NCBI GenBank assembly: GCA_963818475.1
Contig: CAWFSF010000002.1
Coordinates: 786,497-850,496 of the forward strand
Source of the DNA: Nitrospirota bacterium
GTDB taxonomy: Bacteria; Nitrospirota; UBA9217
Length of the DNA: 64,000 bases
Direction of reading: 5' to 3'
Under the pieces are notes generated by a model. That model did no database searches and was not told the DNA's origin. It was given only the letters and a program-made list of their open reading frames with translations. This document shows, piece after piece, positions 4,551 through 51,265 of the stretch (its first letter is position 1; each line of letters starts with the position of its first letter). The translations under genes were made by a program, and so were the position numbers.

Positions 4551-4728
4551 GCAGATAACCAATTACTACACTGAATGCAGTGAGTGCATCATTGAGTCTG
4601 TAGAATAAATCATTTTGGACGAAATAAGCCTTAAGAACATCAAATACTTATGAACCACAAAAATGTGAATCTTGGGCTTTTTCTGCAGACTCGTTGGGCA
4701 ACACTCACGCTCACGAAAGGATAACCGT

Positions 4729-4926
4729 ATGTCTTTGCCGCAAGACTTCTGGGAACAACTACCAGAGAGGACGGATGAGGAATTGTATGGCATGCTTGCT
4801 CACCCAGACGACTACCGGCCAGAAGCTCTCGAAGCGGCGAAAGAGGAGCTTCGTAAACGCAATCTCGCGCCGGTGCGGACGGCCCAGCTTGAAGCCGTTG
4901 CTCAGTCACAAAAGACAGTGAGGTAG
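4729..4926 (+). CDS. Small hypothetical cassette protein
   Basis: MSLPQDFWEQLPERTDEELY...Y.PEALEAAKEEL.KR; stop codon immediately before an attC-like site. Confidence 0.55.
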   Translation: MSLPQDFWEQLPERTDEELYGMLAHPDDYRPEALEAAKEELRKRNLAPVRTAQLEAVAQSQKTVR

Positions 4927-4928
4927 GG

Positions 4929-5051
4929 GCACAACAAAGTTGGTTTAGCGAACCGCTGCCTATCTTTTTCGTTCGACGCCGGGCAGTAATTTGAGAGTGT
5001 ATGCGCTCCACCGTCCCTTTTGGCGGCGGTCGCTCACCCCTATCGTTCTTG
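4929..5051 (+). mobile_element. attC-like site (long)
   Basis: GCACAAC ... AGCGAACCGCTGCC / GGCGGCGGTCGCT ... GTT; AAC and GTT ends with a paired inner stem. Confidence 0.6.
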
Positions 5052-10972: not shown

Positions 10973-11021
10973 AAAACGAAAAGCCGGACTTGCCGATACA
11001 TGTTCCTTCGGCAGCCCGGCT
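10973..11021 (-). terminator. Riboswitch expression-platform terminator
   Basis: AGCCGGGCTGCCGA...TCGGCAAGTCCGGCT followed by TTTCGTTTT; overlaps the 3' strand of the aptamer. Confidence 0.7.
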
Positions 11022-11085
11022 GTCTTCTTCTCAAGACCCGTCGCTTTCCGCGCCCTTCTCGCGAAGGGTTCGGCTTTATCGGGAA
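11005..11085 (-). promoter_or_regulatory. c-di-GMP-I (GEMM-I) riboswitch
   Basis: CGAUAAAGCCGAACCCUUC-GCGA-GAAGGGCGCGGAAAGCGACGGGUCU...AGACAGCCGGGCUGCCG matches the GEMM-I consensus (GNRA-capped stem, GAAAGC junction, GGUCU/AGACAGCC stem). Confidence 0.85.
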
Positions 11086-11181: not shown

Positions 11182-12198
11182 CTAAGGCGCAAACCTCCCG
11201 GGAATTATTGTGCCGCACGCCGGGCACGTGCCGTTCTTGATCTTATTCTGCCTGACGTCGAATATATACCGCTCGATCAAAAGCTCGCCGCATCCATGGC
11301 ACCAGGTATTCTCCCATCGATGGCCGGGCACGTTGCCGAGGTACACGTACCAGAGCCCCGCTTCTTTTCCCAAGGTCCTTGCTTTCTCCAGCGTGCGGAT
11401 CGGCGTCGGCCGGATATCAAGCAGTTCATGATGAGGATGGAACCTCGTCACATGCCACGGCGTAGCAGGGCCGAGGCTGTTCTTGATCCATGCCGCGATG
11501 TCCCGGAGCTCCTTTTCATCATCGTTGTATGCCGGGATGATGTTCGTAACGACCTCCACATGCATCCCGAGCTTCTGCGCCTTTTCCGCGGCTTCAAGTA
11601 TGCCCTTGAACTTCTGAATATTCCCGATCCTCAGGTACGTCCTGTCGGAAAACCCTTTGATGTCCACCCGGTAGACGTCGAGGTACGGGGCAATCATGTC
11701 GAGCGCCTCTTTCGTGATATACCCGTTCGTTACATAATTGGTACGGAGCCCTCGTGCTTGGGCGATTTTTGCCGAGTCGAGGGTATATTCGAACGAGAGC
11801 GCGGGCTCGTTGAATGTCCACGATATGCCGAGGCAGGCTGAATTTTTGGCCTGATCAACCGCGTTTTCCGGCGAGATGTATTCGGTGTCCATGGGCCCTT
11901 CTTTCCAGTGGGCAATGTCCCAGTTCTGGCAGCCCGGACACCGGAAGTTGCATCCCACGCTTCCGAGGGAAAGCCACCGCGAACCCGGATAGTAGTGGAA
12001 GACCGGCTTTTTTTCAATGGGGTTGATCGAGATCGACGAGACTTCGCCGTAGATCAGGCTGTACAGCACGCCGCTTTCATTTATCCGTGTTCGGCACCAG
12101 CCCGTCTTGCCTTCCGGGATGATGCATTCGCGCTGGCAGGTGTGGCACCTGATCGCATTATCGCGGAGTACGGTATATATATATGCTTCTTTTTTCAT
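11182..12198 (-). CDS. amrS: AmmeMemoRadiSam system radical SAM enzyme
   Basis: CHTCQREC...G.CRTR, PIEKKPVFHYYPG, GCNFRCPGCQNWDI, PWHVTRFHP, YVYLGN and C-terminal CxxC pairs. Confidence 0.9.
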   Translation of the reverse strand: MKKEAYIYTVLRDNAIRCHTCQRECIIPEGKTGWCRTRINESGVLYSLIYGEVSSISINPIEKKPVFHYYPGSRWLSLGSVGCNFRCPGCQNWDIAHWKEGPMDTEYISPENAVDQAKNSACLGISWTFNEPALSFEYTLDSAKIAQARGLRTNYVTNGYITKEALDMIAPYLDVYRVDIKGFSDRTYLRIGNIQKFKGILEAAEKAQKLGMHVEVVTNIIPAYNDDEKELRDIAAWIKNSLGPATPWHVTRFHPHHELLDIRPTPIRTLEKARTLGKEAGLWYVYLGNVPGHRWENTWCHGCGELLIERYIFDVRQNKIKNGTCPACGTIIPGRFAP

Positions 12199-12297
12199 GT
12201 TCGTTGTAATGCGAATTGACCGCGAATATGAAATGAGGGTTTAAGAAGAACCAACCGGCCGGCATGTCCGGTATTTCCCTCAATATTTTGCTGATGA

Positions 12298-12600
12298 TCA
12301 CTCCTTGTGCTGTCCAAGATAATCCAGTACAACGACAACGGCGTGTGCGCGCCTGTTAATCACGCCGAGAACATTGTCGAACTTCTCGATGGGATCGGTA
12401 AGAGAGGGGTCGATGAATTCCTCGGCTGCTTCTTCGACGGTCTTCAGGACTCGGAGCCCCTCGGGCGTCTTGCGCAGCGCATCCTTCCACGCATCCTTGG
12501 CCAGGAGCAATGACCCCAGCAGCATTTTCCTGATCTGCTCCGCCTTGATTTCGAGGAACATGAACCGGTCATCCTGCATCGTATCGTGATAATTCCTCAC
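12298..12600 (-). CDS. Hypothetical protein
   Basis: GTG start with AGGAGA RBS; host-like codon usage; same strand as amrS. Confidence 0.6.
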   Translation of the reverse strand: MRNYHDTMQDDRFMFLEIKAEQIRKMLLGSLLLAKDAWKDALRKTPEGLRVLKTVEEAAEEFIDPSLTDPIEKFDNVLGVINRRAHAVVVVLDYLGQHKE

Positions 12601-12901
12601 CTGCGCTGTCTCCTGTCTTTGCGGGGTTTAGTGAAGCAGGTGGACATTTCTAATTTTACATTCGTAAGTGAGATGGTCAATGATTTCGTATGGCACAAGC
12701 TGCACTCTGCCATGAGCCTCCGCTCTCCAGCACAGCATCGGAGCAGATACGTTTAAAGTCCGTCGAATTGAAGCAGTCTATGAATAGATTGTACCACTGG
12801 AAGGAAGGGGGCGAAGCACTGAAGCATTACACCAATGTAATTGCGACTAAAAGTCTTATTCAAGCTCATCCTGATTTAATTGCTTTGAATTGCGGCCTTC
12901 T

Positions 12902-14881: not shown

Positions 14882-15130
14882 AATAAGTTTTAGACGGCAA
14901 TGGCCCCGACGACTCCGCACTTCGCTGGTACGATCTCTTGTGGCTGGAATTAAATATCCTCTGGGACGTGGAAAAGATATGTACGAAGGGAGTATTTTAA
15001 TTAAACAACTCTGACCCTTTGTCGCTCCGGAGCGTACCGGCCAAGGGGTACTAAAGTGCTAATAAGGTGGTTGTTTTTCGTTTCCCTACATCTTTTTAAT
15101 ATCACCGCTTGACAAGGTGTGGTATATAAT

Positions 15131-15440
15131 AATTAGGCGTTGCCGGACCGACACTGAGAAGTGTCAAACGTATCATTAACTTCCGTTGAGGGTCTTAAGC
15201 GCCAACCGGGCGTGATCCGGAATCGGCAAACAGCAGTCCGTAAGGGCTGTTAACCCGCCGGTTTGCAGATCACCAAAGGCTGGAAAGCGGAAAGCCCCTG
15301 AGGCTGAAGGAGAATTCGGCGAAGGAAACGAATTGCTTCAGGATTGGCGAGAGCTGATCCCAGAGTGATCGTGGATCTTCCCGAATATCCCGAGGTTCAA
15401 CGGAATGATTAAGATGCGGGTCTAAAGCAACGCCGTAATT
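15131..15440 (+). ncRNA. Unassigned large structured ncRNA candidate (~300 nt)
   Basis: Nested long-range helices close the 5' and 3' ends; multiple GNRA hairpins; TATAAT just upstream; terminator downstream; no ORF in the track. Confidence 0.7.
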
Positions 15441-15462
15441 TATCGTCAAATATGAAAGTATG

Positions 15463-15500
15463 AAAGCCGGCAGGGGTTAGATGTTCCTGCCGGCTTTTTT
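15463..15500 (+). terminator. Intrinsic terminator
   Basis: AAAGCCGGCAGG...CCTGCCGGCTTTTTT. Confidence 0.85.
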
Positions 15501-15709
15501 CGTTCCCTCATCAGAGAAACCCTTCTCGACCACATCATGAGCCTGGCAAGTTCAGGAAGACAATCGTAACTGCGGAACGGTTGCAATCACCTCCCCCTCA
15601 TGAGGTTTCAACAACTGGCAATTTGATTCATAAGAATGCAATAACTTCTATTTCTCAAAGTTGAAGCACGGATCGATCCCGGGGAAGTGCTAATATAAGA
15701 GCAGATACC

Positions 15710-16083
15710 ATGACAACAGTCAAATTCGTAACCGAATTGGCCACTAATTGCATGTGGCACTACAAAGGGGGATTGCTCACGACTAGAAGAAAATAGGTGA
15801 ACTGGTCCCTCCAGTCGATCGGCAAGGGGAATACCGTAATGTCGTTCCCTTGGGTGCAAAGTTCGTGAAAGGACCCATTCGGCAGCGGTATATCGAGAAA
15901 TTCGCAACCAATAATGTGGCCAACTTGGAGGCCATCGAGCAGTTCAACTTCGTCGCAGGGATATCGATAAAGATGTCGGCCGGATTCGTCCAGGGGGCAA
16001 CTGATAGTGAAAGCGTTACGCAACGGGTGCAACAACGTCACCCGGGTGCCTCAACATTGTTCAGGCATGCAACTTTCCCATAA
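15710..16083 (+). CDS. Hypothetical protein, possibly interrupted
   Basis: ATG 15710 (MTTVKFVTELA...) may join ORF 15850-16083 across an indel or stop. Confidence 0.3.
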
Positions 16084-16154
16084 ATGAAGAATCATAAAAA
16101 AAAGACGGACGCGGGAAACAAACGATACAGAGGCAAGGGAGGGAGGATCTTTAA

Positions 16155-16862
16155 ATGAAAATAAAAATTTTAACAAGTATCTTAACTGTGTGCATTTCCA
16201 GTGGCTGTATGGTAACGCACAGCGAAGTACAACACTTTCGGACAGACTACGACCCGCCTAATTATTTTCGCCTATCTATAGAGAGCACAGGCTTTCTTTC
16301 AAGAGCCAAGTACTCATCAGGCTTCTATGATGAAAAAGCTTTGGATATCTTTCTCAACGAGTTTGGCAGTAAGGATTACGCGAAATCCGGCCAAGTGAGC
16401 TCTATATCCCAATCTGATGAAAAAACAATGTTCGACAAGAGCACCGCAGAAACTACCAGCAAAGACGGCCATGTGCAACTAAAACCGCTGAGTTCGAATG
16501 GTGTTTATGCCTACATTTTCAGCACAAATGCTGATGATATCGCGAGGACTATCGGTGCGTTCGCTGAAAATCAAGTTGTCGCCGACTATATCAGCGCCCT
16601 GATAAATAAGGAAAAGTTAACAGCGCTCGATGACAAGGAGAAAACGCTGAATCAGAAGGCGGGTGCCATAGCGTCCATTCGTATGGAGTTAGAAGGTCTG
16701 ATAAGCCAAGTCCCAGACCAACCCGGCAATGACGCGCAACCTGATTTAAGTAGCTATATCTATCTACTTACCGCCATCGCACGAGGCGTCGATTTACAAG
16801 CTAGTTTCAAAAATCTGGACGAAGCCAAAGCCTTCTTTGACGCATTGCCATCGAAACCATAG
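16155..16862 (+). CDS. Hypothetical lipoprotein
   Basis: MKIKILTSILTVCISSGC lipobox; GGAGG RBS. Confidence 0.75.
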   Translation: MKIKILTSILTVCISSGCMVTHSEVQHFRTDYDPPNYFRLSIESTGFLSRAKYSSGFYDEKALDIFLNEFGSKDYAKSGQVSSISQSDEKTMFDKSTAETTSKDGHVQLKPLSSNGVYAYIFSTNADDIARTIGAFAENQVVADYISALINKEKLTALDDKEKTLNQKAGAIASIRMELEGLISQVPDQPGNDAQPDLSSYIYLLTAIARGVDLQASFKNLDEAKAFFDALPSKP

Positions 16863-16873
16863 GAGACTCGAAA

Positions 16874-18060
16874 ATGCTGAGACATCTTATCTTCGCGTTA
16901 TCAGGCATCTTGGTTTTATTAGCAGGATGCGGTTCTATTATAACAAATGTTTCCGTTTTGAAACCATCATATCTAGATGGTATCAAAATGGAGCAAATGA
17001 AGTACGCTGAATTGCGTGCTGCCTACGAACAGGATCAAACTTTTATTGAAAATCGATACAAAGCCGATATCGAAAAGCTTGACGAAACCTATAGACGATT
17101 GGCGAATGAGTACGGCAAGAAGGCTGCAACCTTGAAAACTGATGATCCAAGCCGTACTACTTTGACAATCGCTTCTCAAAGGTGGTTAGACGAGGCTGGG
17201 TCAGAAGGAGAATTTAATAAAATTCTACAAAACCGCATTCAAAAAATTATCGAGTGGAATGAAAAAACACGCATTGAGGTATCGAGAGAAGCCAATTACA
17301 TTAGTGTCCTAAGAGGTGATGCGCCGATACCAAGCAAAGTAGTCACTATTTTGAACAACCAACGATTCGAGAGAGAATCCCTGGGCAGCCTTATTGAAGG
17401 TCAAAGAAAGAATTTAAACAAGGCGTTGCGAGCAGATGAAAATTTAAACGTTAAGGAAAAAAAACAGAGCAGTCAGAGAGATTGATAAACGCTTCTCTAG
17501 TATGGAACAGACGACGCTTCTGACTTTAGGAGGGTGGAAGGCAATACATGAGGATCCGGTTGCTTACTCTGTTGCATCAGCAAAAGAAGAAATGTGGGCG
17601 ATACGCTATAACGACGTCAAAGGATTCGGATTGTTTGGAAATACCGATTTCATAATAGTGCTGGATAAACGAGGCAATTTTCGAATGAAGGGAATCTCGT
17701 TCGATCCCAGCAAAGTAGCCGAGATGGCGTCAAAAGTCACTACGCAAGCATTGATAGCAGCAGTATCGATCTCAGGCGTACCGGTCCCCAAGGGTTGCTG
17801 CGAATTCAAACTCCGGAGAGAAACAAGCGATGGCGAATAGTAATGACGCTCTTTTAGCGAAACAGAATGCTTTGAACACTATCGAGAATCAATATGTAAA
17901 CTACCGACGCGCTCTGATTGACATCGCAAAATCGATCGTTGAGAAAAAAGACGATCTGAATGACAAAGCAAAGTATGCAGCCGCCACCACTGCTATCAAA
18001 CAAACATTTAATGCCCATAAAACTCGACTGACGTTATCACAGGAGAGCAATAATCAGTAA
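16874..18060 (+). CDS. Hypothetical coiled-coil lipoprotein, probably one ORF with two indels
   Basis: LLAGC lipobox; first break at the poly-A run near 17460; ORFs 16874-17485, 17502-17840 and 17830-18060 are contiguous. Confidence 0.6.
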
Positions 18061-18097
18061 GCAGTAAAAACATATTATTTTATGAGGAGAAAACACC

Positions 18098-18387
18098 ATG
18101 TCTTTTACAAATGGAGATATTGTTAAAATGAAAGGAGCAGGCGCGGGCGGCAAGGTAGGAAGGATATGTTCGGTCGAGCCGGAGGATACTGGGTCTATTT
18201 TCGAGGATTGGTTGTCGTTATGTTCCCTTGGCCTCCCTGGAACATGCTGCTGGTCAGGCGCCACAATGTCCGAATAATTGTCCTCCTTAGGATAAGTAAC
18301 GGAATAGTCGAAAGAAGGAAAAATGGCAGCCCGCTTTCCGATGTTATTCCAGAGGATGCGGCAGAGAGTAAAGATAAAGAGGCTTGA
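18098..18387 (+). CDS. Small hypothetical protein (KOW/SH3-like start), frameshifted
   Basis: GAGGAG RBS; MSFTNGDIVKMKG...GRICSV. Confidence 0.35.
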
Positions 18388-18607
18388 ACATGACACGATC
18401 GAGTCTTTCAGTGAAATTAGTATCAAAAGGAAAAAGCAACGAGATATAGGGACAAATTTAAGTCATACTTGGAGGGCTTAGATATTTCTTAATCAAGCTA
18501 TGCTGTTCCGACATGTGGACTGAGCTTGACAGGCTCAAGCTATCTATCCCTAACGGACACAGTTTATCAGTATTGTGCCTCATGCAGTTTTTTAATAGGA
18601 GCTCCAA

Positions 18608-21094
18608 ATGAGAAATAGATCGAATATAGTGATATTCCTCGTAACGGTAAGCTTGACTATACTCCTTGTTGTACCCTATGCACCAGCTGCTAAACAGCCA
18701 TCTGCCCCGATCACTGAACAAGCGGCCTGTTCTCAGGCGGAGGCATATCTAAAAGACGGCGCCCTCGATCTCGCTGAAAATAAATACACGGAAGTCCTTA
18801 ACAAAAAAACTAAATCTGAATGTGCCTTGGCCGGTTTGCGTAGCGTTGCTGAGAAAAAGTGTGATGTAGCGATGCAGCTGGCATCCGCTGGCGACCTTGA
18901 AGGCGCAAAAAATCTATTTTCAAAAATGCTCAACTTATATCCGGATATGTACTGCGCTGCCGCCGGACTCGAATGGATCCTGAATAGGGAGATTGAAGGC
19001 CTGATCAAGATTGGGAACTATGATGAGGCCTGGAAAAGGATTAGTTCTGCTAGAGCGGTAAATCCGAAGAATGTTGAGTTGAAGAACTTGTCCAAAGGTT
19101 TGCCGATTATGTCCCGCCGTTTCTATATTCTGCTGAAAGAGGCTTTGAAATGGTTAGCGATAGTATTCATATTGACGTTGGTGGTTTGGCTAGTTCCCTG
19201 GTGGTTAGGCATTTTATTTAAGATGAAAATCGATGTTGGCGAATTTACGCTGGGGTCTGCTCTGTTGAAAAAGGATGCAAACGCAAGTCCAGACCCGAAT
19301 AAGGCTCTTCCGGCAATATTTGAAGAAAAGTTGTCTGGACTCTGCAAAGCGTGCAGGCTTAATAATCCTGACATGATCGATGGGCCCCTTCAGATACCTC
19401 AGCTACCAGGCGATTTTTCATCTATGCCAAAAGAAGCAAGTGACTTATGGAATTTTATTACGAAGTTTATCCCAGACAATGCGTTGACTATAAAAGGAAG
19501 CTTGGAGTACGAAGAAATAGAAGGGGCTGGTCTTTATGTCAAGCTCATCCACAGCAAAGGAAACTCGTTATGGGCGTCCTTCACCGTTTGGCAAAGTGAC
19601 GTTGATCCAGAGTTCAAGGTTGGAGCTGGGGACCCTGGTTTAAATGATTACATGCGGCTGGTTAAACCTGCTGCCGCAAGGGCGTATTGGACGATATATA
19701 AAAAGCATAGAATAACGTTTCGCGATGTGCGTGGCGCCTTCAAGTATATAGAGCCGGGTGATTTGATCCACATCCGTAAGTTGCTTGAAAGAATGAAGCT
19801 TATTACTTTACATAACGTATTCGGAACGGAAGAGGTAGAGAGCCATATTTACACTCAAATTGCATTGCGCCAAAAGTCGACAAATATTGACTTAATGAAG
19901 AAAACACTAATTAGAGCTCTGACCCACGATTACAAGAATTACCTTGCCAGGTTTACTTTGGCAACGATTGAAGTCAGCGAGGCTGACAAGTGCATCCGTC
20001 AAGAAATGGATCAGCTAAAGATTCCAGATGCAAAAAAAGAATACGAGAATGCCGTATGGAATTTTGAACACGTTAAAAGGCAGACGGGCAAAGACCAGCA
20101 GAACAAGGCTCATTTCTTAGCAAATTATTGGTTGGGAGTCATTGAACTCTATAAGTATGGTGTCACAAAAGAAACACAAGGAAACCTTGCTCGTGCGGAG
20201 GAATTGTTAAGACAAGCCGTTAATGGTGCAAAGGAAGCACATAGGAAGAATAAATGCGCAATAACTGATGAGTTGTTAATTATGCTAGAAATTCCTTATC
20301 TGGGCGCCCAAGCATTGAATTTGGTTGCCAGAGTGCATACTAATCCTAAAAAATACAAACCTAAAATGAATATAATTTTGGACAAGATAGAAAATATTGA
20401 AAATCACCACTACGCCTCATCTCGCATTCTATACAACCTAGCGTGTTTTAAGAGCAGATCGGTCCAGTATCAAATATATGCAGGAGACCCTTCGGACCGG
20501 GAGCTGGTGGAAAATGCAGTGTCCCACTTGAAGAAAGTCCTCAAAGTAGACCCTTACCGTTATAAAAATATGATCATGACGGATCCTGCGCTTAGGACAT
20601 TGCGAGACAATAAAGAGAAAGGGAAAGAGTTGCTAGATATGTTGAAAGATATAGCTCCCGAACCATCTGCCCCTGTTAAGCCTAAGTCATCTTCTATCGC
20701 TGATCTTGTAGGAGGCGAAGCGCGGCGATCCTGCAGAAGGCCAACATACAGTTGTCAGAAGACTTGTTGAGAGAAACAAGAAAACATGCGTCCAGAGAGC
20801 ATTTGGCCAAGCAATGCTATTTGAACGAGAAACAACTATTACAGTGGGCAAGAGTTGTAGAGTTAACGCGTATCAAAGGGATTGATATTGGTGTCGCTGC
20901 TCTATTTTATGCGGTCGGGATAGAATCAATTGATGAGCTTAAGCGCTTCAGAGAAGAAAGAACGAGAGTTGCTGTGTGAACTCAAGAATGCGAAAGAAAC
21001 GCGACAAATAGTTGTAACGTTGCCTGAAAGTGACAAGCTTGCACGGTGGATAGAGGAGGCAGTGCACATGACGTCGTTGGTTGAGCTGTCATGA
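18608..21094 (+). CDS. Membrane-anchored TPR protein with C-terminal DUF4332 (HhH) domain, two indels near the 3' end
   Basis: Signal peptide, Cys-rich TPR-like helices, TM segment, LYNLAC TPR end; shifted frames give DLL...R..LA...LLQWA...ELTRIKGI...A.L..VGI.S..EL...WIEEA (DUF4332-like). Confidence 0.65.
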
Positions 21095-49351: not shown

Positions 49352-51265
49352 GTTCGCAGTAACAACTGATTATCTCGCGGGTTCAAGTCCCGCCCAAGGA
49401 GTTGTCCGTACACCTTGGTAGCACGAGGGAGCGGCGTCTGAGCAATCAGAGGTCGTGAGTTCCCAAACGGCAAAGCTACAGGCCGCAGCGAAAGCGAACC
49501 TACACGTAGCCTCGTAACTTATTCGGAGATGCCGACCTTGTGGTCAAATGGGGAAGGCCGATGCGCGCTGATTCAGACAACGGAATCGATCTGTGCGATC
49601 TCCCGGGGTAGCAGGGGCGGCATGCAGCGGAAGATAAGCAGTCCAGTGCTGGAGACCCCATACAGTGATGTTAGAGGAACATCAACCGGTGCGTATAAGG
49701 AAACGAAAACGCACTGGGCTGTATCGGGAGTCGGAGGGGTCCATAGTATCGTTTGAAGGTATGGGACAACATAACCCTGCCCGAGAAAAGGGACCCTGCT
49801 TTGTTCACGCAACCGAAGGAGAGAGGATGAGGGGATTGCAGAGATGCTAACAACCCCAGATACAATCAGGACACTCCAGAGGAAGCTCTACCGTAAGGCC
49901 AAGCAAGAACCGGCCTACCGCTTTTACGCGCTCTACGACAAGATACACCGGGCCGACATCCTCAGTCACGCCTACCATCTTGTCAGGGCCAACAAAGGAA
50001 GCGCCGGCATCGACGGCGTCACCTTCGAGGCCATAGAGACCGGAGAAGGGGTAATCGCCTTTTTGGCGGAGCTGCAAGAAGCACTGAAGAGCAAGACCTA
50101 TGCACCAAACCCTGTAAAGCGCGTCATGATCCCCAAAGGAGACGGCACAGAGCGTCCCTTGGGAATCCCGACCATTAGGGACAGGGTGGCCCAGATGGCC
50201 GTAAAACTGGTCATCGAACCGATATTTGAAGCGGATTTTATAGACACCTCATACGGATTCAGACCCAAGAAGTCGGCCCATGATGCAATCGAAGACATAT
50301 CGTATGCCCTTAACTGCGGTTATACGGAAGTCATCGACGCCGATGTGTCCAGGTACTTCGACACCATTCCCCATGCCAAACTCATGGCCGTGGTCGCCGA
50401 GCGCATCGTTGACAGTGCGATTCTGCACATTATCCAGATGTGGCTCAAGGCCCCCGGTTATGGAAGTGGACAAGGACGGAACGAAGCGCAACATCGGCGG
50501 CGGCAAGGCAAACACCAAAGGAACACCGCAGGGCGGTGTCATCTCGCCGCTCCTGGCCAATCTCTATCTGCACCTGTTAGATAGGATATGGCATAAGAAG
50601 AAGCTTCAGTATAGGCTCGAAGCGCGTCTTGTCCGGTATGCCGACGATTTTGTCGTGCTGTGCAGAAAGGGAACTGAGCAGCCGATGGCGGTTGTGCGCC
50701 GGGTGCTCGAACGACTGGGACTTGTACTCAATGAGAACAAGACCCGCATGGTGAACGCCAAGCAAGAAGGCTTCAACTTCCTTGGATTTGAACTTCGTAT
50801 GGGGAAAAGTCGGAGAACGGGCAACCTTTACCCCCTTATACAACCGTCACGAAAAGCCCTGAAGAAGATCAAAGACAGCGTTACCGCTCTTACACACAGG
50901 CGGATGACGCCGAAGCCGCTTACTATGATAATCGAAGATATCAATACCGCCCTCCGGGGCTGGGTCGGGTACTTTCATTACCGCAATAGCAGCAAGGCGT
51001 TCAATCGTCTCAAGTTTCATGTGGAAGCGCGAGTGCGCACGCATCTGCGAAAGCGGCATAAGATCAAAAGCAGGGCAGCGGGGTTTACCAGGTTCACCAA
51101 CAGGTCTTTGTACGAGAAGTATGGGCTCTATAAAGTGCCGACGACAGCGGGCTGGCTGAAGGCGCATGCCTTGCGGTGAAGAACATCGGAAAGCCGTGTG
51201 CGGGAAAACTGCATGCACGGTTTGATGAGGGAGGGCTGGTCAATACGACCAGCTCTCTACTCTAC
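49352..51265 (+). mobile_element. Group II intron
   Basis: Probable 5' end GTTCG; domain V AAGCCGTGTGCGGGAAAACTGCATGCACGGTTT; domain VI ending CTCTAC; internal RT ORF. Confidence 0.88.
49844..51179 (+). CDS. ltrA: Group II intron reverse transcriptase/maturase (one indel near 50455, no En domain)
   Basis: RPLGIPTIRDRVAQ, SYGFRP, GTPQGGVISPLLAN, RYADD, FLGF, GW.GYF. Confidence 0.92.

Follow-up and report, generated by a model that had tools for sequence, protein, structure and literature searches.

What is encoded at positions 15131-15500 of the + strand of this 64,000-nt stretch of a Nitrospirota bacterium (the whole stretch is referred to as the window), where the only overlapping open reading frames (ORFs) are minus-strand frames of 59 and 46 aa? 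The original prediction, made from the sequence, regarded this locus as an independently transcribed multi-junction non-coding RNA (ncRNA). Positions 15135-15435 (+) are one paralogue in a family of structured ncRNAs of about 300-310 nt that had not been catalogued before. The structure of the family is conserved and covaries, its copies occur independently of their neighbouring genes, and it is found as a discrete RNA in environmental RNA libraries.

As an RNA, positions 15131-15440 (+) had a minimum free energy (MFE) of -135.9 kcal/mol, compared with -94.5 ± 4.6 kcal/mol for 100 dinucleotide-preserving shuffles (z -9.07), none of which folded as well. The minus strand of the same region reached -112.8 kcal/mol (z -4.33). 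Among 64 family members, 53 likewise folded better on the + strand, and G-U cells exceeded A-C cells (547 vs. 207) in an alignment of 64 sequences (A4) that had been fitted to the + strand model. These results support the + strand orientation, as originally read from the G-U pairs and loops.

The helices were evaluated on A4 and on two further alignments, namely A3 (MAFFT, 19 sequences) and A5 (MAFFT only, 42 sequences from both clades of the family). On A3, 90.7% of the cells were paired, compared with 35-41% when the 3' partner was slid, and both-side changes were found in 30 of 105 pairs, compared with 14.4 ± 2.9 in shuffles (0/500 with as many) and 15-18 after sliding. On A5, the corresponding figures were 83.4% against 35-45% for paired cells and 59 of 78 pairs against 39.7 ± 3.2 in shuffles (0/500) for both-side changes. 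Homologues thus covary above the shuffled background on both of these alignments. A4, which leans towards the model, showed 87.6% paired cells (37-45% slid) and both-side changes in 96 of 105 pairs.

Most of the helices that had been proposed were retained. The nested long-range helices (P1, GGACC/GGTCT, CGTATC/GATGCG, TTCCGTTGA/TCAACGGAA, and AATCGGC/GCCGGTT) and the three hairpins capped by GAGA, GTAA, and GAGA loops were present where predicted, and were paired in 74-98% of A3 cells and 79-99% of A4 cells. P2 was paired in 87-89% and its hairpin P2a in 87-88% of cells, while both-side changes on A4 occurred in 6/6 pairs of P3 and 9/9 pairs of P4. The proposed pairing of GATCAC (15268-15273) with GTGATC (15365-15370) did not hold up, as it was found in 60.7% of cells vs. 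87.4%, with many pair types, for the family-wide alternative with GTGATC at 15212-15217. The proposed stems CTGAAG/CTTCAG (76% on A3, 66% on A4) and AATTCG/CGAATT (66% and 49%, respectively) were present, but weaker than the consensus helices of the arm B domain (helices 12-14, 86-92% on A3). The closing helix P1 behaved differently from all others. Its core (GGCGUUGC/GCAACGCC) was paired in 500 of 503 cells with a both-side change in 0/8 pairs and was nearly invariant in sequence, and among its nine pairs on A4, four never varied and one showed a both-side change, whereas the other helices covaried freely. The features of the locus are listed in Table 1.

Table 1. Coordinates of the RNA, its helices, and its flanks in the window, and of two housekeeping RNAs elsewhere in the genome holding the window copy
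Feature	Position	Strand	Description
Upstream block	15049-15134	+	Conserved among window-type copies despite differing neighbour genes (11 upstream regions and 64 upstream stretches aligned); contains TACTAAAGTRCTAA, CGTTTCCCTACATC, TTGACA (15109-15114), and TG-extended -10 TGTGGTATATAAT (15118-15130)
RNA body, ~300 nt	15135-15435	+	Long closing stem P1-P4 splitting into two arms; supported by MFE z, models R2/R3, covariation, and contig cover in four runs
P1, 5' strand AGGCGTTGC	15135-15143	+	Partner 15427-15435
P1 as originally predicted, GGCGTTGC/GCAACGCC	15136-15143/15427-15434	+	Present as predicted
P2, 5' strand GACC	15146-15149	+	Partner 15419-15423
Hairpin P2a, GACACT-GAGA-AGTGTC	15150-15165	+	
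P3, 5' strand	15169-15176	+	Partner 15411-15418
P4, 5' strand TTCCGTTGA	15181-15189	+	Partner TCAACGGAA, 15397-15405
Arm A	15190-15297	+	Ends in conserved junction GGAAAGCGGAAAGCCCC
Arm A helices	15190-15200/15287-15297, 15202-15207/15278-15283, 15212-15227/15257-15273	+	
Arm A hairpin	15232-15239/15244-15251	+	GUAA loop
Arm B	15303-15396	+	Helices 15303-15305/15394-15396 and 15309-15322/15378-15390
Arm B hairpin	15328-15348/15353-15372	+	GAGA loop
3' strands of P4, P3, P2, P1	15397-15435	+	RNA contig cover ends here
A/U-rich linker, P1 to terminator	15436-15461	+	Nearly absent from RNA-library contigs
Intrinsic terminator	15462-15500	+	15-bp stem 15462-15476/15484-15498, 7-nt loop, U run
Downstream block CGTTCCCTCATCAGAGAAA	15501-15520	+	Conserved among window-type copies; resembles upstream CGTTTCCCTACATC
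6S RNA (RF00013)	C6:2028120-2028299		87.6 bits
Large signal recognition particle (SRP) RNA	C2:679561-679816		84 bits

The RNA matched no recognised family, in agreement with the original prediction. When the whole window was searched with cmscan (Rfam 15, gathering scores), nothing was returned at the RNA, the matches elsewhere being to tRNA, the c-di-GMP-I-GGC riboswitch, and group II introns (two). When the search was relaxed to E ≤ 10 over 14900-15700, the RNA body matched only CsrC (RF00084; 16.7 bits vs. a cut-off of 61, E 0.011, spanning 15151-15509), and the other matches were chance ones on the terminator hairpin. Two core copies (see below) gave nothing consistent at E ≤ 10, and the loci of eight relatives gave nothing on the RNA at E ≤ 0.01, with no T-box or riboswitch model among the matches. 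The RNA resembles the CsrB/CsrC sponge RNAs (RF00084) in its length and terminator end, and this is the sole Rfam similarity above noise. However, the score was far below the cut-off, and inspection of the sequence placed the nine GGA motifs in 310 nt mostly within helices rather than in hairpin loops. A divergent housekeeping RNA was ruled out, as the genome holding the window copy (G000) has canonical 6S and SRP RNAs (Table 1), RNase P type A (278.3 bits), and transfer-messenger RNA (tmRNA; 189.6 bits) at other places. 6S RNA is likewise abundant, stable, largely double-stranded, and closed by a terminal stem, and the present RNA would share its action in trans, but it is ~120 nt longer, branched, and without a match to RF00013.

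OLE, raiA, GOLLD, and ROOL are orphan large structured bacterial ncRNAs. Like them, this RNA is encoded by a gene of its own, complete with promoter and terminator, is several hundred nucleotides long, and combines multiple helices, GNRA loops, conserved junctions, and strong covariation with a lineage-restricted occurrence and a function that is not evident from its neighbours. Unlike them, it occurs as several paralogues within a genome, its terminal helix is invariant in sequence, its RNA contigs show head-to-tail joints, and it has no match in Rfam 15. The raiA motif (RF03072) was not matched in G000 by a search whose control matched in 0/14 control genomes, and the Rfam scans of the window list none. 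Literature searches on structured RNAs in Nitrospirota returned nothing relevant, although supplementary lists of motifs or circular-RNA clusters could still contain the family.

The RNA is not the lone orphan that it was first taken for. A blastn search identified a second copy in G000 with 87% identity, including the promoter and terminator, as well as homologues of this window type in 16 of the 64 genomes of the same family, and none in 24 genomes that belong to other families of the phylum (61-genome sample of relatives). Two covariance models were then used, R2 for the full-length RNA (19 sequences, 105 pairs) and R3 for its 5' domain (42 sequences of both clades). R2 gave full-length matches in 56 of the 64 genomes of one Nitrospirota family, which represents the whole order, with four paralogues in G000 (329.5, 292.1, 53.7, and 28.3 bits) and 1-5 matches per genome, and no match among the 123 genomes examined from 21 further families of the phylum. 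R3 recovered the RNA in 27/27 sampled genomes of the family (E 1e-27 to 1e-52). Outside the family, 6 of the 123 genomes contained weak and short R3 matches (E 2.6e-4 to 0.0095, 34-176 nt), which were treated as noise. Pattern-scan matches outside Nitrospirota (in Clostridia, Proteobacteria, Actinomycetota, and others) were rejected as coding-sequence coincidences after inspection of the sequences; R2 found no match outside Nitrospirota records among 47 such loci, and its single significant match was a Nitrospirota locus. A pattern scan of viral sequences returned 117 stretches, a chance-level pattern, and R3 matched 0 of the 80 loci listed, while blastn against plasmids and phages gave no match. 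As far as searched, the family thus appears to be confined to one family, or order, of Nitrospirota.

A FastTree phylogeny of 64 sequences separated two clades. Clade A comprised roughly one member per genome, found at a syntenic (core) locus. At this locus, the opposite strand carries holB, tmk, a gene for an SMC_N/AAA_23 protein, and a gene for a chorismate-binding enzyme, and the RNA comes next and diverges from them, usually followed by genes for a thioesterase and a methyltransferase. The gene downstream of the core RNA has its own promoter-like TCGACA...TATTTTA. Core copies carry long conserved junction and loop sequences (GGAAGAGCCGAAAGCCCC, GCUUCACAGGGUC...GCAGAGCCGCAGAAGC, and the loop AAGUUGA), and these conserved junctions and loops would form the functional core. 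Clade B comprised the accessory copies, including the window copy, plus four short variants. The short variants (240-247 nt; L055, L058, L059, and L096) are without the inner part of arm A, while P1-P4 and arm B are kept. The window-type copies were found beside unrelated genes across 16 contexts, and some genomes had copies separated by 0.1-8 kb or three copies in succession. An 18-kb contig (L034, G006:C90) harbored four members (4680-5002, 11689-12001, 12084-12402, and 12565-12888), three of them in a row at distances of 82-162 nt, and these members belonged to different clades of the tree. The position of the window copy at the border between cooS and an AT-rich island, to which attention had been drawn, stands, but the neighbourhood is incidental because neighbours differ between copies. 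The copies also did not behave as a dispersed miniature inverted-repeat transposable element, an alternative raised with the original prediction, as there were only 1-5 matches per genome and the two window-type copies of G000 were 87% alike.

The two clades differ in the way their promoters and ends are arranged. In the window-type copies of clade B, the -10 element lies directly before P1 and a separate terminator follows, whereas in clade A, a TG-extended -10 lies ~55 nt upstream of P1, the leader contains a conserved GRTCTTTGAAA motif, and GCAACGCC is directly followed by TTTTTTATT, i.e., a U run after P1. The leader motif of core copies GATCTTTCTAAAG (e.g., L079 6990-7010) resembles the 3' tail of 16S rRNA minus the anti-Shine-Dalgarno core, which may be a coincidence. 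No leader/trailer processing stem was conserved at core loci beyond pairing of an A-tract with the U run. In the window, the noted TATAAT upstream of the RNA was confirmed at 15125-15130 within TGTGGTATATAAT, which is of the TG-extended -10 type. A consensus promoter scanner did not detect a promoter spaced by 16-18 nt at TATAAT, in line with the earlier remark that TTGACA is too close and the -35 uncertain. TTGACA occurs 8 nt before the -10 in both clades (window 15109-15130; core copies in L085, L094, and L111), and this spacing is conserved. The close-set TTGACA, unsuitable as a sigma-70 -35, may be an operator or part of an unusual promoter form. The strong terminator was also borne out, with a hairpin of -25.7 kcal/mol (z -5.58) that is shared by the second copy of the genome and by relatives, while a simple terminator scanner reported 0 terminators at the site. 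The conserved flanks of window-type copies span about 85-140 nt on the upstream side and about 20 nt on the downstream side; they are alike each other (CGTTTCCCTACATC upstream, CGTTCCCTCATCAG downstream) and are conserved across genomes. Judging from the sequence, this mutual likeness hints at duplication or insertion of a whole cassette.

Expression was evaluated in sequencing libraries. An index search returned 20 runs from 13 studies with small shares of the stretch, 9 of which are on record as RNA. Contigs of four runs from four studies (X1, X2, X8, and X12) were placed on the window at ≥85% likeness. Their cover fell entirely within about 15135-15435, and the bins spanning 14950-15117 and 15454-15650 had zero depth in all four runs. 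The first upstream bin with depth was 15118-15141. At the 3' end, the summed depth of bin 15430-15453 was 92 in X1 and 0 in X2, X8, and X12, compared with 57,722 (X1), 676.6 (X8), 325.8 (X12), and 0 (X2) in the bin before it. X1 contained 1,801 contigs, 347 of which were ≥99% alike and none of which continued into the flanks or into unlike sequence, with a summed word depth of up to ~1e6, and depth reached hundreds to thousands in X8 and X12. DNA of these organisms would have covered the flanks; therefore, these data indicate a discrete, abundant RNA from which the 3' linker and terminator have presumably been trimmed off. The independent transcription of a multi-junction ncRNA, as originally put forward, is thus supported by contigs that cover the predicted RNA without its flanks and by homologues that covary.

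Taken together, the locus probably encodes a stable, end-trimmed, trans-acting structured RNA of an order-wide family, which is possibly circular. Transcription of the gene would start at ~15135 under the control of a TG-extended -10 promoter of its own and would end at the hairpin 15462-15500. The A/U-rich linker and terminator would then be removed, so that the ends of the mature RNA would lie flush at the closing helix P1. The product would be a very stable and abundant RNA with the long stem P1-P4 and two arms, which, by analogy with 6S, Y, or OLE RNAs, may act in trans as a protein-binding particle. The sequence-invariant P1 could be recognised in end-processing or by a binding protein. 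Each genome would keep one ancestral copy at a fixed locus, and the extra copies, with promoters of their own, may give an additional or condition-specific supply. Several points weigh against this explanation. The TTGACA-TATAAT spacing of 8-10 nt is non-standard for a sigma-70 promoter, and no conserved neighbouring gene points to a partner protein. The contigs were derived from relatives that are 85-100% alike, with one depth figure per contig, and the transcript ends are therefore approximate; neither the start and end points of a transcript nor its level can be established from contigs, whose depth reflects expression poorly, and the label of X1 reads 'RNA? (probably DNA)'. In addition, the conserved core would suit a ribozyme or a ligand sensor equally well.

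An extension of this explanation, rather than an exclusive alternative to it, is covalent closure of the mature RNA into a circle, with the P1-held ends being ligated after 3' trimming, e.g., by RtcB or another ligase. Such a circle would be viroid-like and resistant to exonucleases, which would explain the abundance of the RNA. Contigs of X8 and X1 span a 3'-to-5' junction for which no DNA counterpart was found. In X8, a 240-nt contig (depth 600.9) runs through 15383-15422 and 13 letters ending in GCAACGCC plus CA, and then continues with 15135-15319 ('goes back 288'). In X1, which is from another study, one joint connects 15421 to 15135, and another connects 15419 to 15159, with GCAACGCC directly followed by GGGCGTTGC in a contig of 319 nt; a circle of ~289 nt would be expected to yield this length in a k=31 graph. 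The CA before AGGCG at the X8 joint is the genomic 5' flank of some relatives, and thus fits a 5' end at the transcription start. The junction pattern was found in 0 metagenome contigs, vs. 10 with the window-type 5' end in a single copy each, and junction-like matches in the 64 family genomes were unrelated hairpins, with no RNA-associated junction. The invariance of P1 amid covarying helices also fits ligation at this helix, and RtcB is encoded in G000 and in 25/27 family genomes. The G000 RtcB gene (C6:1410921-1412217, -) is present as two adjacent frames covering profile positions 1-353 and 352-426, which may be due to a frameshift or an assembly error.

On the other hand, reverse transcriptase could jump from the 5' end of the template to the nearby 3' end, and rare chimeric cDNAs of so abundant and end-paired an RNA could enter a de Bruijn contig. 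The depth of 600.9 in X8 belongs to the whole contig and not to the junction, as there is one figure per contig and the data are contigs rather than raw reads. A primary 5' triphosphate end is no direct substrate of RtcB. Furthermore, RtcB was found in 117 of 151 genomes across the phylum and the ATP-dependent RNA_ligase (PF09414) in 1/27 family genomes; thus, no ligase tracks the RNA. Covalent closure is accordingly a candidate, and the circular form is a serious possibility, although linear RNA is the likelier state. The fuller proposal, in which order-wide chromosomal RNAs are trimmed to the invariant helix and ligated into abundant viroid-shaped circles that act as a cellular ribonucleoprotein or regulator, is slightly less probable.

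There is a bacterial precedent for such a molecule. DucS of Bacillus altitudinis is described as a chromosomal ncRNA with linear and circular forms and permuted 3'-to-5' junctions, the mechanism of its circularisation being unknown (PMC10504365). The present RNA is likewise chromosomally encoded and shows permuted 3'-to-5' junctions, but it is not expected to be related to DucS in sequence, and its family and invariant end helix are conserved across an order and its circularity is putative. Viroid-like circular RNAs and Obelisks are also highly base-paired and appear as circular contigs in environmental RNA libraries (10.1101/2022.07.19.500677; PMC10827157). The present RNA is viroid-sized (~300 nt), compared with ~1 kb for Obelisks (PMC10827157), and differs from the viroid-like RNAs described there in having a chromosomal DNA gene with promoter and terminator, in matching no self-cleaving ribozyme model, and in being branched instead of a plain rod. 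A viroid-like RNA replicon was ruled out, since DNA copies with a promoter and terminator reside in bacterial chromosomes, namely in 56/64 genomes, and in 10 metagenome contigs.

Other functions were weighed against a trans-acting RNA. The size and ornate structure of the RNA resemble those of large leaders, which raises a cis-acting riboswitch or attenuator of the downstream gene, or, at the core locus, of the divergent gene for the chorismate-binding enzyme. In most core loci, the RNA indeed lies 82-204 nt from the start of this other-strand gene, and the same arrangement recurs in one genome, where a second copy is 123 nt away from an ABC-transporter fusion gene. However, the favoured + strand means that the RNA diverges from the chorismate-binding enzyme gene, and a minus-strand leader of this gene was ruled out by the strand evidence. 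The downstream genes are unrelated (sensor kinase, GGDEF-EAL, NmrA-like, sugar nucleotidyltransferase, and thioesterase) and often on the other strand, and the RNA is ended by a terminator or by P1 plus a U run, with RNA contigs stopping at P1. As mentioned above, no T-box or riboswitch model was matched. A leader function is therefore very improbable. As to a possible expression platform, the core copies have the U run directly after P1, and no alternative leader-trailer pairing was found. The RNA could otherwise serve a small non-autonomous mobile cassette of ~0.45 kb (promoter, RNA, and terminator), with the window-type copies spread by insertion or horizontal transfer. Their patchy blastn distribution in unrelated contexts, the similar motifs in the conserved flanks on both sides, and the neighbouring or tandem copies in some genomes agree with such a cassette, but copy numbers are low, the copies are not accompanied by any conserved transposase or integrase, plasmids, phages, and the 80 listed viral loci gave no match, and the conserved flanks may simply be regulatory DNA. 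Moreover, nearly every genome has an orthologous copy at the fixed locus, which points to a cellular function, and a cassette is thus an unlikely explanation.

The long conserved junction and loop sequences of the core copies, the precise apparent ends, and the head-to-tail joints would also suit a self-processing ribozyme that cleaves or ligates itself into trimmed ends or a circle. No hammerhead, twister, pistol, hatchet, hepatitis delta virus (HDV), hairpin, or group I/II model was matched at E ≤ 10, and the 5' end is the expected transcription start, so that one cut is enough and ordinary RNases could make it. Such a ribozyme is quite improbable. Mobility as a cassette and self-processing are thus possible but unsupported, and a stable RNA acting in trans is preferred.

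Large structured RNAs that are conserved but have no known function are seldom found, and they have repeatedly opened up new biochemistry. According to the 5' domain model, this family is present in 27/27 sampled genomes of an uncultured Nitrospirota order, with a syntenic core copy and expanding accessory copies, and it ranks with the most covered sequences of some environmental RNA libraries. These properties suggest that it plays an important part in the cells of organisms that are known almost exclusively through metagenomes. If the circles are true, the family would represent a conserved class of chromosomally encoded, structured circular ncRNAs in bacteria and a possible source of 'viroid-like' circles in metatranscriptomes, and it would thus serve as a warning for surveys that read circular contigs as RNA replicons. 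Models R2 and R3 would allow annotation of the RNA and its proposal as a new family.

Other features of the window were observed. The stretch 16000-21000 is low in G+C content (GC; 0.39-0.46 vs. 0.51-0.58 around it), contains six ORFs, and is not conserved beside other copies of the RNA. The ORFs of the AT-rich stretch (16155-20770) had no PHROGs match, and their only Pfam match was to TPR repeats in a 720-aa protein; a weak PADLOC match to PDC-S02 (E 0.0016) was located at 17830-18060. A cyclic di-GMP (c-di-GMP-I-GGC) riboswitch aptamer (67.4 bits, cut-off 59) lies at 11006-11083 (-), upstream of a minus-strand frame. Group II intron parts on the + strand, unrelated to the RNA, were identified at 49384-49618 (D1-D4, 66.1 bits) and 51189-51265 (domain V/VI, 54.2 bits), which suggests an intron of ~1.9 kb (49384-51265) with an internal ORF.

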